From: Eledone cirrhosa
Lineage: Eukaryota
Direction: 5' to 3'
Assembly (NCBI GenBank): GCA_964016885.1
Contig: OZ024740.1
Location: forward strand, 366,358,001-366,422,000
DNA: 64,000 bases
The notes beneath the pieces were generated by a model. That model had not been told where the DNA came from. It worked only from the letters and a program-made list of their open reading frames with translations, and made no database searches. A program made the position numbers and the translations under genes. This document shows, piece by piece, positions 33,482 through 64,000 of this stretch. Every line of letters begins with the position of its first letter. The stretch's first letter is position 1.

Positions 33482-36281
33482 TTTTGCGAGGTTTTTTATC
33501 CACAACAAATAGATGACGAGACAGAGGCACAGTTCACCATAGCTAGAAATAAGATTAGACAAATAGTAGACAGGTATACTAAGAGACAGAGCAGACCAGA
33601 GGCCCAACAACTTGGGAGGAAACCTGTAGAAGGCTTGGTTAGCCTCAAGCAGCGCACAAGGGATGGTGAGGTAGTATGTCTACCCACGGATAAGTCTGGT
33701 AGGATGTCAATAGATAGCATGCCGAACTACATCAAGGCTATGCAACCCCACATCACCAACACGAGCGAAATTGCACAACAAACACACGATGGGAGAGAGA
33801 AAATCCTCAACGCTCACATGATGATGTGGACTGACATCCTAAAGCCAAGCAGACGCACTGCCAACAACTTCCAGGCGTCTAACAATGGCATACCACCCTT
33901 GAATGGTCTTCGCAAAGACCACAAGACAGTCGACGACCCGACAACAGGACCACCAACAAGACCCGTATGCGGAGCTAATATAGCTAGCAACTACAGGATC
34001 TCCTACTTCCTCTCAATGGTTATACGCCCCATAATCAAGATGTCCCCAGATGTATGTGACAGTACAGAGGACCTCCTCAACAGACTCAGTGAGTGCAACA
34101 AAAACAGGAACCTATCCAACTGCATAATAGGCAGCATGGATGTGGTGTCACTGTACCCATCCATTAACATTGATTTTGCTGTGAAAAGATGTGGAGATGA
34201 TCATTGAGAGTGAGGTGGAGTTCTGCGACGTCGACACAGACGAACTGGGCCTCCTACTTAGACTTACCTACGACACTGACTACCTAGACAGCCATGACCT
34301 TAGATGTTTCTGCCCTAGTAGACCTATAAGAGGTAGACCCCCCACCATAACCTCAGTGGCAAAAAAGACTCCCATGGGAAGGTGGATTGGGTGGACCAAA
34401 GCTATACGGACCCCCCAAAACAATGATCAGGTAAGAAAAATGGTCGCACACGCAATAGGAGCTAGTATCAAAACTACCCTAAAGGGCCACATATTTAAGT
34501 TCAACGAGAAGATCTACACCCAAAATGAGGGAGCAGCCATCGGCGTCAGCATAGCTGGTGATGTTGCCAACCTTTTCATGGTATGGTGGGAAAGGAGACT
34601 TAAAGATCTCCTTAATGAGAGCTCCATAGACCTCATCATGTACTCTCGTTATGTAGACGATATCAATATAGTTATAAGAACACCCCCACTAGAGAGCACT
34701 AACAAGTTTGATTTAGAACGTAGCACGATGGAAAGCATCCAGCAGATAGCTAATTCCATACACCAGAGTATAACTGTAACTATCGACTTCCCTTCCAAAC
34801 ACCCTAACAATAGACTACCTGTATTAGACACAGAACTCTGGATTAACACTATAGACGAGAGAGCCCAAATTCTCCACTCACACTATGCTAAACCCATGGC
34901 CTCCAAATACCTGATACTCAAAAACTCAGCAATGTCCAGTAGTGCTAAGTTTAATATTCTGATCGCAGATTTGGTACGAGTGATGAAGAATGTGTCCCGC
35001 ATGTGCGACCCAACAGAAATGGAAAGACACATCCAATACTTCATCAACCGCATGTAGTTCTCTGGCTACAACCAAAGAGACAGAATCAGAGTATACGAAG
35101 GAGCCATGGAGAAGTATAAGACCCTCATAGAACTGGACATGAAAGGAATTTGCCCATTATACAGGAGCAAATCATGGAATAGCTTAGATAGGGCTAGACA
35201 TAAGATAGGGAAAGCCACCTCATGGTACGACAACCAGAGATACCAGAGTGTCATGTTTGTGGACGCTACCCCTGGAGGGAAATTAGCTAACCAGTGTAGA
35301 AAGGCCCTGAGAAAGACCCACTTAAAAATAAAGGTGGTAGAAAAGCCAGGAACCACCATAAAATCCCTGATCAGCAAAACCTACCCTTTTAAGAAAACCC
35401 ACTGTAGGAAATGTATCATATGTAAGGTGAACCCCCGGATAAACTGTAAAACTAGAAACGTAGTCTATAGCATAAGATGTACAGAGGGTACTTGCAGAAA
35501 CATGACAACAACATACATAGGTGAGACAGCTCGTAGCATAGGTGAAAGGATAGACCAACACTGGGGGGGAAAAACGGGTCAGTACTATACGAACATGCTA
35601 GACAACAACATGACGGTAACATAGACAACATAGAAATTAGAATAATATCTAAACATAGAAATGACCCAGCAGATAGGCAAATCAGAGAAGCCAGTGAAAT
35701 AGAAACTAGAAGACCAAGGCTAAACAGAAAGAATGAATGGAATAACAACAACACCCAAACAAACAACACTGACCTAAGAGAAGTATAAATAAGTAAATAA
35801 AATAAAATAAATAAATAAATAAATAAATAAATAAATACATACACAAGCACAATAACAACAAGCACATAAACACACACTAGTCACCCATCACACAGCAAAC
35901 AAAACACTATACACACACGCAAACGCATGCGCAAAGAAGAAAAAATAAAATAAACAAACAAGCAAATAAATAAATAAATATATAGACAGACTGAATAAAA
36001 ATGGCGTAGACATACAATACAACAGGAGGAAAATATAGCACCACTGACGATGTTGCAGATGTGCAACGAAAGATTTATGATAAACTATATATATGTGTTT
36101 GTGTCTATATTGTATCTGTATTATTTTTGACCGCCGGTCAGTCAATGGCAACATTGAGGACCGAGTATATTAGATTACCGATATAAAAGACACAGAAGCG
36201 AGAAGCGAAAACCAACCAAACAGTGAGTGTGTTCTGTTATTAATTCTGGCAATATTACACAAATATGACCCTCCCCAAGTA

Positions 36282-36285
<4 letters not shown>
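33480..36285 (+). mobile_element. Penelope-like element (Cys-linker, Neptune/Nematis-like), RT plus GIY-YIG, disrupted
   Basis: PTDKSGR, GLRKDHK, PPTRPVCG, GSMDVVSLYPSI, Q.EGAAIG, RYVDD, LPVLD, CRKCIIC...NVVYSIRC...YIGETARS; frameshifts near 34190 and 35560, TAG at 35055. Confidence 0.92.
36044..36071 (+). ncRNA. HHR core in PLE 3' pLTR
   Basis: CTGACGA-tGTTGCA gatg TGCAAC-GAAA; stems I/III imperfect. Confidence 0.6.
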
Positions 36286-36317
<32 letters not shown>

Positions 36318-36343
36318 TACTTGGGGAGGGTCATATTTGTGTA

Positions 36344-36450: not shown

Positions 36451-37092
36451 GGCGAGACAGCTTGTAGTATAGGGGAACGGATAAATGAACACTGGCGAGA
36501 GCTTCAAGATAGTAAAGAATCATCTGTACTCCACCAACCTGCTAAAATAGAACATAAGGGTAAATTAGAGAACATAGAAATAAAAATAGAATCTACACAC
36601 AGAAAAGACGCAATGTTTAGACAAATCACAGAGGCAATAAACATAAATGAACTCCAACCAAATTTAAATAGAAAACATGAATGGAACAGCAACATCACAA
36701 CTTACAATTAAGGAAAAAATGAAAACACACACACACATAGAACAAACAACCAACCAGTAACATGTAAATAAACAAATAAATAAACAAATATAAACACACA
36801 CAGACACCCGGATGTAACACATGTGCAAACTAACCACACAACACACACACAAACAAGATGGCGTAGGACAGAACAAAGCAGAGGCACAAAAACAAAGAAA
36901 AGAATCCCCAGTTACTGAAGAGGTCACAGAATGTGTGACGAAAGAACTTCGACAATATATGAACAATCATCTGGTTGTGGAACCAACCAACCAACCGTAA
37001 ATTTATAAATTCCTAAATTTATAAATTTAATTTATAATAAATTGAAGTGAAAGCAACTGGTGCTTGTGTTTCTTATTGGTAACATGACCCTC

Positions 37093-37096
<4 letters not shown>
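36444..37096 (+). mobile_element. Second related PLE fragment (GIY-YIG C-terminus plus pLTR)
   Basis: [16 protein letters not shown]...RQITEAINI...[10 protein letters not shown]; ends atgaccctcccaa(TA)n like the upstream copy. Confidence 0.85.
36915..36943 (+). ncRNA. HHR core in the second PLE pLTR
   Basis: CTGAAGA-gGTCACA gaatg TGTGAC-GAAA; stem II differs from 36044 but still pairs. Confidence 0.6.
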
Positions 37097-37143
<47 letters not shown>

Positions 37144-37489
37144 AAGCTTGAAACTAGTACATCGTTCCTGTGTCAGTGTTGAACAAAAAGGTGACGTGGT
37201 TGCCTTAACACCGTACGGCATAAATTCAGGCTGTCAGTTTGTTTACAAACGGACAAAGCGGGCGTTATAATAAACGTCCAATAAACTGATACGTATGTAC
37301 CTGTATGTTTATATATATATATATATATATATGCATGCTACTGTACTTCTGTATACATATATGTATGTACGTATACATACATACTTACATTTAAGTAAGT
37401 GCCGTACTAAAAGTGAGAAATGAAATTTCGTTTTCATTTTATTACAACTTATCGTTTTCGGTGCGCCTGGCCGACTGAACTCACTCGAT

Positions 37490-37497
37490 ATGCAAAT
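37490..37497 (+). promoter_or_regulatory. Octamer motif ATGCAAAT (repeated at 37997-38004)
   Basis: Exact POU/Oct site ~80 nt upstream of each HHR; function inferred only. Confidence 0.35.
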
Positions 37498-37572
37498 TAG
37501 GCTGCTCAGCCGTTAATTTTCATAAGGAAAGTATATACTTTCGAACGTTCAACCATCTGGCAGAAGGGTATA

Positions 37573-37613
37573 CGGTGCTGATGATAGCTAAGAAGCTTGA
37601 AACTAGTACATCG
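37573..37613 (+). ncRNA. Canonical minimal type I HHR
   Basis: CGGTG-CTGATGA-tAGCTaagaAGCTt-GAAA-CTAG-TA-CATCG; palindromic stem III ACTAGT; GUA site. Confidence 0.9.
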
Positions 37614-37761
37614 TTCCTGTGTCAGTGTTGAACAAAAAGGTGACGTGGTTGCCTTAACACCGTACGGCATAAATTCAGGCTGTCAGTTTGTTTACAAACG
37701 GACAAGGCGGGCGTTATAATAAACGTCCGCTAAACTGATACGTACATATATGTATGTGTAC

Positions 37762-37842
<81 letters not shown>

Positions 37843-38079
37843 TGCTACTGTACGTCTGTATACATATATGTATGTACGTATACATACATACTTACATTTA
37901 AGTAAGTGCCGTACTAAGAGTGAGAAATGAAATTTCGTTTTCATTTTATTACAACTTATCGTTTTCGGTGCGCCTGGCCGACTGAACTCACTCGATATGC
38001 AAATTAGGCTGCTCAGCCGTTAATTTTCATAAGGAAAGTATATACTTTCGAACGTTCAACCATCTGGCAGAAGGGTATA

Positions 38080-38120
38080 CGGTGCTGATGATAGCTAAGA
38101 AGCTTGAAACTAGTACATCG
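38080..38120 (+). ncRNA. Canonical minimal type I HHR (next unit)
   Basis: Identical to 37573-37613. Confidence 0.9.
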
Positions 38121-38268
38121 TTCCTGTGTCAGTGTTGAACAAAAAGGTGACGTGGTTGCCTTAACACCGTACGGCATAAATTCAGGCTGTCAGTTTGTTT
38201 ACAAACGGACAAGGCGGGCGTTATAATAAACGTCCGCTAAACTGATACGTACATATATGTATGTGTAC

Positions 38269-38319
<51 letters not shown>

Positions 38320-38431
38320 TGCTACTGTACGTCTGTATACATATATGTATGCACGTATACATACATACTTACATTTAAGTAAGTGCCGTACTAAGAGTGA
38401 GAAATGAAATTTCGTTTTCATTTTATTACAA

Positions 38432-38491
<60 letters not shown>

Positions 38492-38697
38492 GTTGGTGTT
38501 AGAAAGAGCATATATATATATAGTGGTTAGAGCATTGGCCTTGCAATTGAAAGGTTGTGAGTTCAATTCTCAGACCGGGTGATGTGTTGTTTCCTTGAGC
38601 CGACCAAGGTAGAAGCTGCTAAATGGTCGGTCGTCCTCTTGTCTCTGATTTTCAGCCCCATGGATTTTATCTGTTTTATTCCTTTGTTATATTTTGA

Positions 38698-38755
38698 ATA
38701 CCTGATGATGTCACCGGATTTATACTGAACCCGGTCATTGAAATGATCATAGTAT
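38698..38755 (+). ncRNA. Type I HHR, canonical core
   Basis: ATAC-CTGATGA-TGtcACCGG...CCGGTCAtt-GAAA-TGATCA-TA-GTAT; palindromic stem III ATGATCAT. Confidence 0.8.
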
Positions 38756-38798
38756 AATAAACCTTTCAAGGATTTATATATATATATATATATATATA

Positions 38799-41907: not shown

Positions 41908-42013
41908 AAACGGAAAAAATGAAACGAAATTTCCTTTCCCACTCTTAGTACGGCTGTTACTTAAATATAAGTATGTACACGTACATACATATATGTATAC
42001 AGACGTACAGTAG

Positions 42014-42088
<75 letters not shown>

Positions 42089-42270
42089 GCACACATATAT
42101 ATATGTACGTATGGATTCACCGAACATTTATTATAATGCTCGGTGTGTTTGTAAACAAACATCCCGTATTAAGCCGTAGTGTCTAGCAACCATCGTTGCT
42201 CGTTTGTTCAACACTGACAAAGGAATGCTGTACTAGTTTCAAGCTTATTAGCTATCGTCAGCAACGTTTC
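41908..42270 (-). mobile_element. Dispersed, diverged copy of the retrozyme-like unit (short end fragments also at ~42795-42835, ~42912-42955)
   Basis: Colinear with the 37141-38434 unit on the opposite strand. Confidence 0.8.
42227..42265 (-). ncRNA. Minimal type I HHR
   Basis: Minus: GTTG-CTGACGA-tAGCTaataAGCTt-GAAA-CTAG-TA-CAGC. Confidence 0.85.
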
Positions 42271-42780: not shown

Positions 42781-42858
42781 TATATATATATATAAACGTA
42801 AAAAATGAAACGAAATTTCATTTCCCACTCTTAGTATATGTATATATATATATATATG

Positions 42859-42913
<55 letters not shown>

Positions 42914-42957
42914 CGTAAAAAATGAAACGAAATTTCATTTCCCACTCTTAGTATATG

Positions 42958-43063
<106 letters not shown>

Positions 43064-43073
43064 AACGAGTAGG

Positions 43074-43169
43074 ACCCCGACGGCTGAGCTCAAGCCGTTT
43101 CGACGGCTAATTCTGGACTAAATGAACATTTTTATCCTGGTATATGAATAGCCGAGCTTCTCAGGGGGT
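43074..43169 (-). ncRNA. Type I HHR with extended stems, core variant CTGAGAA
   Basis: Minus: ACCCC-CTGAGAA-..CGGCTA...TAGCCG..-GAAA-CGGCTtgagctcAGCCG-TC-GGGGT; GUC site. Confidence 0.6.
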
Positions 43170-43293
43170 AATTCCATATATGGTAAAAGTGATTGTCACA
43201 AGGATTATCCACTTATTACCCACTCTACTACCCTAAGTATTGAGTACTTTGGTGCGTTATGGTCCACCTGGTTCCTTGCCACATTTCCTTCGT

Positions 43294-44587: not shown

Positions 44588-45135
44588 AAACATGTCTATA
44601 GAATCACAAGATAAAATATATACTATTTTCTCTCCCAATTAGCATAATTAACCATATAAAAAATCGAATAGACCAGGCTATAAGAATGAGGCTTCTATGA
44701 AGAAATCTCCGACAAATAACCGAAAATAGCGCTTCGCGTCGGCCGTAGCGGAATATTTATCGAATATTTCGACAGCGTAATCGCCCAGATATAGTCAACT
44801 AAACAGAATTAGGTGTAAAATAAACTAGGAGAAAATAGAATACATTTAAGTACCTCTACCATGGTTTCGTCCGTAATTTGAGTTTTCCAATAATTATGTA
44901 ATAATTATATAAACTCGAGCGCCGGATTCATCAGGAAGCTCGCTCTTATCTAGACACTAAATTTTCCAAAGTGATCGCGCCAAGAAATTCATTTCAAAAT
45001 GGCTCGGAGATTTCTTCATAGAAGCCTCATTCTTATAGCCTGGTCTATTCGATTTTTTATATGGTTAATTATGCTAATTGGGAGAGGAAATAGTATATAT
45101 TTTATCTTGTGATTCTATAGACATGTTTTATGATA
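44581..45135. repeat. Foldback, ~130-bp near-identical arms, ~290-bp loop (PLE-derived)
   Basis: 44581-44712 is the reverse complement of 45004-45135. Confidence 0.9.
44853..44938 (-). ncRNA. Type I HHR, canonical core, long stem II
   Basis: Minus: CTTC-CTGATGA-aTCCG...GAGTTT...AAACTC...CGGAc-GAAA-CCATGG-TA-GAGG; palindromic stem III ACCATGGT. Confidence 0.8.
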
Positions 45136-55610: not shown

Positions 55611-56557
55611 TGACTACCTACCAACCAACCTACCTACCTACCAACCAACCTACCTACGTACGTACCAACCTACCTACCTACCAACCTACCTACCAACCTA
55701 CCAACCTACCTACCTACGTACCAACCTACCAACCTATCTACCTACCAACCTACCAACCTACCAACCTACCAACCTACCTACCAACCTACCTACCTACCTA
55801 CCTACGTACCAACCTACCAACCTATCTACCTACCAACCTATCTACCTACCAACCTACCAACCTACCTACCTACGTACCAACCTACCAACCTATCTACCTA
55901 CCAACCTACCAACCAACCTACCAACCTACCAACCTACCAACCTACCAACCTACCTACCTACCAACCTACCTACCTACATACCAACCTACCAACCTATCTA
56001 CCTACCAACCTACCAACCTACCAACCAACCTACCAACCTACCTACCTACCTACCTACCTAATGACCAACCTATCTACCTACCAACCTACCAACCTACCAA
56101 CCTACCTACCTACCTACCAACCTACCAACCTACCTACCTACCAACCTACCTACCTATGTACCTACCAACCTACCAACCTACCAACCTACCAACCTACCAA
56201 CCTACCTACCTACCAACCTACCTACCTATGTACCAACCAACCTACCAACCTACCAACCTACCAACCTACCTACCTACCAACCTACCAACCTACCTACCTA
56301 CGTACCAACCTACCTACCTACCTACCAACCAACCAACCTACCTACATACCAACCTACCTACCTACCTACCAACCTACCTACCTACCTACCAACCTACCAA
56401 CCTACCAACCTACCAACCAACCTACCAAACTACCTACCTACCTACCTACCTACCTACCTACCTACCTACCAACCTACCTACCTACCTACCTACCTACCAA
56501 CCTACCAACCTACCTACCTACCTACCTACCTACCTACCTACCTACCTATCTATCTAT
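55611..56557. repeat. (ACCT)n/(ACCA)n compound microsatellite
   Basis: Direct reading. Confidence 0.97.
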
Positions 56558-62600: not shown

Positions 62601-64000
62601 TCTACCTACCTACCTACCTACCTACCTACCAACCTACCAACCTACCTACCTACCAACCTATCTACCTACCTAACTACCAACCTACCAACCTACCTACCTA
62701 CCTACCTACCAACCTACCAACCTACCAACCTACCTACCAACCTACCTACCTACCAACCTATCTACCTACCTACCTACCAACCTACCTACCTACCTACCTA
62801 CCTACCTACCTACCTACCTACCTACCAACCTACCAACCTACCTACCTACCTACCTACCAACCTACCAACCTACCAACCTACCTACCTACCTACCAACCTA
62901 CCAACCTACCAACCTACCTACCAACCTACCAACCTACCTACCTACCTACCTACCAACCTACCAACCTACCAACCTACCTACCTACCTACCTACCAACCTA
63001 CCAACCTACCAACCTACCTACCTACTTACCTACCTACCAACCTACCTACCTACCAACCTATCTACCTACCTACCTACCTACCTACCTACCTACCAACCTA
63101 TCTACCTACCTACCTACCTACCTACCTACCTACCTACCTACCAACCTATCTACCTACCTACCTACCTACCTACCTACCTACCAACCTACCTACCTACCTA
63201 CCTACCTACCTACCTACCAACCTACCTACCTACCTACCTACCTACCTACCAACCTACCAACCTACCAACCTACCTACCAACCTACCTACCAACCTATCTA
63301 CCTACCTACCTACCAACCTACCAACCTACCTACCTACCAACCTACCTACCAACCTATCTACCTACCTACCTACCTACCAACCTACCTACCTACCTACCTA
63401 CCTACCTACCTACCAACCTACCCGCCTACCTACCTACCAACCTACCTACCTACCAACCTATCTACCTACCTACCTACCTACCTACCTACCAACCTATCTA
63501 CCTACCTACCTACCTACCTACCTACCTACCTACCTACCTACCAACCTACCTACCTACCAACCTACCTACCTACCTACCTACCTACCTACCTACCTACCTA
63601 CCTACCTACCTACCAACCTACCAACCTACCTACCTACCTACCTACCTACCTACCTACCAACCTACCCGCCTACCTACCTACCAACCTACCTACCTACCTA
63701 CCTACCTACCTACCAACCTACCTACCTACCTATCTACCTACCAACCTACCTACCTACCTACCTACCAACCTACCAACCTACCTACCTACCTACCTACCTA
63801 CCTACCTACCTACCAACCTACCCGCCTACCTACCTACCAACCTACCTACCTACCTACCTACCTACCTACCTACCTACCAACCTACCTACCTACCTATCTA
63901 CCTACCAACCTACCTACCTACCAACCTACCTACCTACCAACCTATCTACCTACCTACCTACCTACCTACCTACCTACCAACCTACCCGCCTACCTACCTA
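62601..64000. repeat. (ACCT)n/(ACCA)n compound microsatellite, open at the window end
   Basis: Direct reading, >1.4 kb. Confidence 0.97.

Follow-up and report, generated by a model that had tools for sequence, protein, structure and literature searches.

Non-LTR retrozymes of metazoans have been described as tandem, non-coding units of about 170-400 nt with one type I hammerhead each (PMC7229834), and the repeat family analysed here in Eledone cirrhosa has this organization in common with them, as well as low GC content, the lack of LTRs, a predicted self-paired fold and the coexistence with Penelope-like elements (PLEs). Traits of the ribozyme also have precedents in that work, namely the U.U at the base of helix II in axolotl HHR_Amex2 and, in Amex1, a weak palindromic helix III that needs dimers; canonical metazoan hammerheads of this build act as dimers (PMC4209133, PMC7229834). 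The present units depart from those retrozymes in their length of 412-541 nt, in the expandable (TA)n that tips one of their hairpins, and in head-to-head arrays whose 3' ends fall at two fixed sites. The structures in PMC7229834 are energy predictions, and the term 'covariation' is absent from its main text. The retrozymes reported by Li, Clavereau and Pollet (2026, bioRxiv 10.64898/2026.07.22.740005), mostly from vertebrates, likewise comprise monomers, dimers and multimers with a proposed PLE origin; they differ from the present family, in which no pLTR homology to PLEs was found in the flanks and the adjacent PLE examined, and the strings 'secondary structure', 'mollus' and 'cephalopod' are absent from the main text of that report.

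With PLEs themselves the family has in common 5' truncation, an inverted 5' copy, a tail at one end, (TA)n targets and a hammerhead near the 3' end, while it differs from them in having no ORF and in an end offset of 50-70 nt compared with a tail of 30-40 bp (PMC8557442, PMC4209133). Its helix I of 6 bp and helix II of 4 bp are of the canonical kind, unlike the minimal PLE hammerhead (PMC4209133). In a limited literature search, titles and the starts of abstracts yielded no report on cephalopod retrozymes or on ADAR editing of retrozymes or retrotransposons of this kind. Newt satellite 2 likewise combines a dimer-type hammerhead with tandem repeats, and its promoter contains an octamer. This promoter is reported to be internal and of the snRNA type (cited in PMC2220036). 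The repeat presented below adds to the known non-LTR retrozymes, and what is new here is a direct test of selection on pairing outside the ribozyme.

A hammerhead repeat in the window and in the genome

Two insertions of the repeat, a minus-strand copy of subfamily B and a plus-strand array of subfamily A, lie within the 64-kb window, i.e., the whole stretch of DNA that was analysed (Table 1).

Table 1 Features of the hammerhead repeat and its neighbours, in window coordinates.
Feature	Position	Strand	Details
Subfamily B copy, 5'-truncated, from the 5' strand of stem I to 3' end S2, then (TA)n	41909..42267	-	
Type I hammerhead of the B copy	42225..42267	-	core 42255-42261, predicted cut after 42231
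Hairpin H1, B state	42120..42143	-	
Long-range helix of the B copy	41949..42178	-	arms 42172-42178 and 41949-41955
Subfamily A tandem array, three parts	37141..38433	+	
Complete hammerhead 1 of the A array	37572..37614	+	core from 37578, predicted cut after 37608
Complete hammerhead 2 of the A array	38079..38121	+	core from 38085, predicted cut after 38115
Hairpin H1, A state	37707..37730	+	arms 37707-37715 and 37722-37730; second intact copy 38214-38237
Long-range helix in A	37663..37913	+	arms 37663-37669 and 37907-37913
ATGCAAAT octamer	37490..37497	+	88 nt before core; again 37997-38004
Short 3'-end-only fragment of a B-like copy, between TA runs	42790..42812	-	second at ~42905-42930
Penelope-like element 3' fragment, neighbour outside the unit	36451..37095	+	joined to the array by (TA)n

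The minus copy is cut at 42267, at the 5' strand of stem I, and lacks the long rod that extends this stem; unrelated sequence lies upstream, and the other B matches all begin at the same query position as the minus copy or 2 nt away. In the hammerhead of the minus copy, stem I contains a C.A mismatch, stem II has U.U at its base and stem III is the palindrome ACUAGU; the long-range helix of the copy encloses H1 together with a UA-rich arm that has an internal (TA)n at the tip. The A array begins 5'-truncated inside the first ribozyme, its predicted cut sites delimit units of 449 and 507 nt, of which unit 1 has a broken 3' hairpin arm (37273-37281), and its final part runs to S2 into (TA)n. The adjacent PLE fragment retains the GIY-YIG C-terminus and its own hammerhead core at 36915. 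At gathering score Rfam yielded no match, and the PLE fragment received no name from Pfam.

Further elements were observed in the window. A hammerhead-like element between TA runs at 38572-38775 (+), with its core at 38702, has an ACCGGU-type stem III and a core change at this locus, and relatives occur at loci L200-L202. Motifs resembling hammerhead cores are present at 44934 (-) and 47693 (-), one of them with an unusually long stem II. The end of a recurrent TA-flanked element at 43062-43291 (+) adjoins many retrozyme insertions, and PLE 3'-end fragments form a short inverted pair around a TA run at 36262-36340. A 25-bp minisatellite (27 copies) and long (CTAC)n arrays occupy 1347-2028, 55614-56556 and 62602-64000.

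Genome-wide, the ribozyme-core pattern gave 28,547 matches in 3.0 Gb, compared with five for the control, and the repeat is likely a non-LTR retrozyme family, within which we distinguish the subfamilies A (the array), A2, an intermediate group, B (the minus copy), B2 and E. A position-ordered sample, for which likeness was not a criterion, came from the first 100 core matches, which correspond to 54 loci. The same genome holds other hammerhead families with the stem III palindromes ACGCGU, ACAUGU and ACCGGU. The ACGCGU family F (L203-L208, L344-L349) forms near-identical head-to-head arrays of 310-nt units that end at unit positions 139 and ~165, carries a TGACGT motif in place of the octamer and has an S2 end resembling that of the intermediate and E groups. 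Loci L197 and L198 hold older-looking hammerheads with an ACAUGU stem III; L197, with an octamer motif upstream, may be a distant relative.

Unit anatomy and predicted fold

Each unit, with the length given above counted between predicted cut sites, contains one type I hammerhead, in which a 6-bp stem I is extended into a long rod, the 4-bp stem II has U.U at its base and the palindromic ACUAGU stem III is unable to close as a monomer loop. By analogy with described hammerheads (PMC7229834, PMC4209133), the U.U at 10.1/11.1 and the 2-bp stem III predict weak cleavage of the monomer and better cleavage of the dimer. All ten natural monomers folded into a branched structure with z-scores from -4.9 to -8.8 (25 shuffles each) and folded better than their reverse complements, and nearly all of these folds share the main helices, with a variable (TA)n at the tip of the long arm. 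A further monomer, from E, folded better on the reverse strand. A stable self-paired fold of the monomer is supported by prediction and by the substitution test below. Upstream of the core, the ATGCAAAT octamer is found at a distance of 80 or 88 nt in A, B and E and of 100 nt in family D, and by analogy with newt satellite 2 it is a candidate internal promoter element; no fixed octamer was found at the corresponding place of the neighbouring PLE. The units are free of LTRs and of a reverse transcriptase of their own, with no RT frame among the long frames of 209 loci.

The homologous sister family D (L125, L149, L152, L341), which accounts for the majority of the first 100 among 11,359 pattern matches, offers a more distant comparison, as its units of 466-470 nt are 62-64% identical to A and B, close stem II at its base with a canonical G-C, lack the internal TA run and form arrays of at least 22 units. 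Folded separately, D shows the same helix order as A/B, and in a sequence-only alignment of D with A/B, 57-63 of ~150 pairs coincide by raw count, 9-10 of them with double-sided changes. When A/B and D were aligned with MAFFT and run through RNAalifold, misalignment removed the long rod together with hairpins a and j from the result, and these parts were therefore compared by separate folds.

Paired substitutions separate two master lineages

The sequence-only reading had described paired substitutions between the tandem and the minus-strand copies, and these are present at the places it gave. In H1, three pairs are changed on both sides (G-C to C-G once, G-C to A-U twice) around a central G.U that is kept; the long-range helix has A-U in the array and U-A in the minus copy; and in the ribozyme, G.U of stem I has become U.G and the core CUGAUGA has become CUGACGA. 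For the minus copy, that account had missed the truncation at 42267, the changed loop 2 and the stem I mismatch C.A (3' strand CAGCAU). The C.A variant occurs in at least 26 loci, of which likeness to the minus copy had brought in 25 and the position-ordered sample one. Exact 24-nt H1 hairpins number 567 for the A state and 15,279 for the B state genome-wide, compared with none for the reversed controls, which shows that the paired differences in H1 are not due to chance.

What these differences separate is, however, not tandem from dispersed copies, as had been proposed, but subfamilies A and B, which are 83% identical. Among the 54 position-ordered loci, tandems were seen within the fetched stretch at five of 20 A-type and nine of 34 B-type loci, the rest being single; since each subfamily thus occurs in both forms, the compared differences lie between two master lineages. 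The same counts bear out the accompanying proposal that the element both disperses and forms tandems. RNAalifold, run on a 17-row alignment of A/B and D, detected double changes in 18 of 71 pairs.

Spreading lineages keep the predicted pairing outside the ribozyme

Because inserted copies decay without selection, tip branches of a copy tree provide a neutral control, and founder branches, defined here as those ancestral to at least three loci, record the lineages that kept spreading. The tree comprised 126 natural copies, one per locus, and was rooted with E (whose pattern gave 1,247 matches, not all of them E). Loci L001-L060 were left out because they had been picked by likeness to the queries, and 44 of 69 further loci gave a usable ribozyme-bearing copy. 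Parsimony was used to place changes on 90 pairs, which came from the predicted fold of one A copy and excluded the ribozyme, the TA tip, hairpin a and the 3'-end hairpin, the latter two being masked because of register shifts and indels. The structure thus derives from predicted folds with one A copy as the main reference, and the reconstructed states are approximate, given weak nodes and hybrid copies in the tree.

On founder branches 30 changes kept and six broke a pair, in contrast to 121 and 210 on tips (p 1e-7). Off the path leading to the structure-defining copy the founder ratio was 21:3, and without A>G changes it was 17:6 compared with 71:209 on tips; a first pass that included hairpin a and the 3'-end hairpin gave 29:12 versus 93:153. 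The result was reproduced with three of four other reference folds on an earlier 82-row set; with the fourth, L096, where only 24 pairs passed, the test was not significant. Slid-pair controls were partly significant (two of six shifts, -1 and -2; OR 5-6, p 0.002-0.014), and the analysis was therefore stratified by mutation class against 85 unpaired columns. From these ~48 founder breaks were expected and six were seen, about one eighth, with a deficit that holds when each unpaired column is counted once (p 3e-5), and the 31 pair-keeping founder changes matched the unpaired-column rate (OR 1.09), so that the sequence is free to change while pairing is held. Three of the six breaks sit in clades of 36-38 copies and were mostly repaired in descendants. 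Changes common to all units of one array (without A>G) kept 13 and broke 25 pairs, compared with 146 and 435, and were hardly filtered. Under the fold model, these results indicate that spreading lineages avoid pair-breaking changes outside the ribozyme, i.e., that selection acts on the predicted branched fold.

It could be argued that selection concerns only the ribozyme and a few signals such as the octamer and the priming sites, with the remaining pairing owed to descent and AU-rich self-complementarity. The UA arm can indeed pair in several registers, two of the slid controls reached significance as stated, and several helices show no double-sided change in A, B and E. Nevertheless, the contrast persists without the UA arm and the ribozyme (founders 21:5, tips 80:163), pair-keeping changes proceed at the unpaired rate, and double-sided states, each present in at least three loci, were found for seven pairs in four helices outside the ribozyme, in addition to one in stem I. 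We therefore regard this alternative as quite improbable. Concerning the earlier claim that the whole unit is a folded RNA under selection, the part that stands is selected pairing beyond the ribozyme, and 'whole unit' is slightly too wide, as hairpin j is partly deleted in B (8 nt lost) and, within A, B and E, the changes in five helices are one-sided only. The spread of a B sub-lineage carrying C.A in stem I and the E monomer with the better reverse-strand fold also count against it.

The path of the compensatory changes is itself preserved. In H1, the intermediates G.G (three loci) and A.C (two loci) survive in separate loci, later A lineages gain U.G and then C-G at another pair, and the long-range helix has a further state in which C-G became U-A via U.G. 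These observations bear on a DNA-level explanation, in which template switching at the inverted repeats of a recombining satellite corrects hairpins and thereby mimics compensation. Template jumps do occur (5' inversions, junction microhomologies), and some arrays have alternating or irregular unit variants like those of unequal exchange. Against it stand the persistence of G.U pairs, the single-sided intermediates in separate loci, the excess of Watson-Crick changes to G.U over A.C on founder branches (14:4) compared with tips (56:65), the covariation of helices spanning at least ~190 nt and the fixed, strand-specific 3' ends in (TA)n, which do not suit a recombination satellite, so that hairpin correction is largely refuted and, in our view, has hardly any probability left compared with selection on the RNA fold.

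An A>G asymmetry in shared changes

Changes on the sense strand, counted relative to neighbouring loci (262 of 289 loci had events), were asymmetric when shared by all units of an insertion (A>G to T>C 48:18) and in solo copies (113:66), in contrast to unit-private changes (93:100), and C>T and G>A were balanced in all three classes. A strict rarity filter that gave an A>G count of 10:0 was set aside, as it overstated the effect. In A, B and E the 5' neighbour was U or A for 18 of 18 shared A>G changes, compared with 39 of 65 private ones (p 5e-4), and the 5'-neighbour preference of ADAR fits U or A. In one D insertion (L152/L341), built of 22 pieces in two arms, three A>G changes within 6 nt (unit positions 336-341) are common to all units and destroy the octamer.

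The A>G excess in an ADAR-like context suggests editing of the template, and A-to-I editing as a contributor of mutations is an option towards which we lean slightly. Taken further, edits reverse-transcribed as A>G, which turn A-U into G.U and A.C into G-C, might make part of the apparent compensation a mutational by-product rather than a result of selection, and besides the asymmetry, its sequence context and the clustered D insertion, it speaks for this view that 13 of the 30 founder keeps and three of eight repairs are A>G. The deficit of breaks, however, persists when A>G changes are removed, and the 13 A>G keeps do not exceed expectation (19 expected). Moreover, the shared ratio of 17:3 in the first set was followed by 31:15 in held-out loci (p 0.14 versus private), collapsing of events, some of which may share descent, leaves 36:16, and transcription-linked repair bias or wrong polarity could yield part of the asymmetry. 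Editing as the sole cause of the compensation is consequently unlikely, if somewhat less so than the two alternatives discussed above, and selection on the fold remains the preferred explanation.

Insertion ends, arrays and a possible link to Penelope-like elements

The 3' ends lie mostly at two sites, S1 and S2, which are located 50-58 nt apart beside TA runs, and exact S2-TA junctions amount to 917 for A, 2,567 for B and 1,810 for D. In A, B and E, 56 of 87 head-to-head insertions end at S1/S2, 31 have at least one end elsewhere and none uses the same site twice; in D, 28 of 34 end at S1/S2 and two are same-site. As many loci were fetched by their S2 end, the other arm alone is informative there. 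PLE-type traits, i.e., 5' truncation, an inverted 5' part, a tail at one end and a microsatellite target, were all encountered in the retrozyme.

Several long insertions hold identical units in both orientations, among them one D insertion with 22 pieces and zero variable sites, as the copying of one circle would give; other insertions are mosaic. Unit variants alternate in arrays of B (L105), A (L023/L342), A2 (L074) and D (L340), and in L105 and parts of L340 the ribozyme is weakened at alternate junctions, a pattern that dimeric circles might explain. A dimeric circle in which one ribozyme is dead would account for L105 and for part of L340, and it does not fit L023/L342, L074 and L125.

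A young PLE family of the same genome, with 41,367 candidates, best copies that are 96-98% identical and frames of up to ~1,240 codons, likewise contains a hammerhead and ends in (TA)n at two 3' sites separated by ~60 nt (window fragment; L356, L357). It is a candidate source of the partner enzyme. No sequence shared between retrozyme and PLE was found in the flanks of 282 merged loci (best 60 of 427 profile hits), and no retrozyme-like sequence was seen in the 3' region of the adjacent PLE. As to classification, the Hydra clade has been described with elements below 3 kb, an endonuclease without CCHH, a CxCX5C linker and DKT (PMC8557442), and it was rejected for the neighbouring PLE, which has frames of 1,238-1,240 codons, a CX4CxxC linker, DKS and an apparent CCHH. 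By motif rather than by tree, this PLE seems closer to Neptune/Nematis.

Discussion

Taken together, the minus-strand element is very probably a 5'-truncated B copy of a fold-selected hammerhead family, likely a non-LTR retrozyme whose copying is done by a Penelope-like reverse transcriptase. For its cycle we infer transcription, cleavage, a circle and a partner enzyme. Tandem copies would be transcribed, two neighbouring hammerheads would pair through the palindromic stem III and then cut, and the resulting monomer of 412-541 nt would probably be circularised. A Penelope-like enzyme might nick (TA)n and prime at the RNA sites S1 and S2, and such priming could give rise to single copies, tandems and head-to-head inverted arrays. 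New lineages would be founded solely by RNAs that keep the fold, and inserted copies would decay neutrally. A bolder and rather doubtful extension is that of a viroid-like RNA in an animal genome, whose whole fold is selected and whose ADAR edits are written back by a twin-priming PLE enzyme.

In conclusion, the folds previously given for retrozymes outside the ribozyme are energy predictions in the literature consulted, and the present analysis adds quantitative evidence for selection with the helices named. Thousands of copies that can be dated preserve the stepwise intermediates of compensatory change. Should the A>G asymmetry represent editing, it would link RNA editing to sequence change in the germline, and if the viroid-like reading were true, editing would supply the G.U steps and the A.C to G-C repairs, and thus heritable compensatory mutations.
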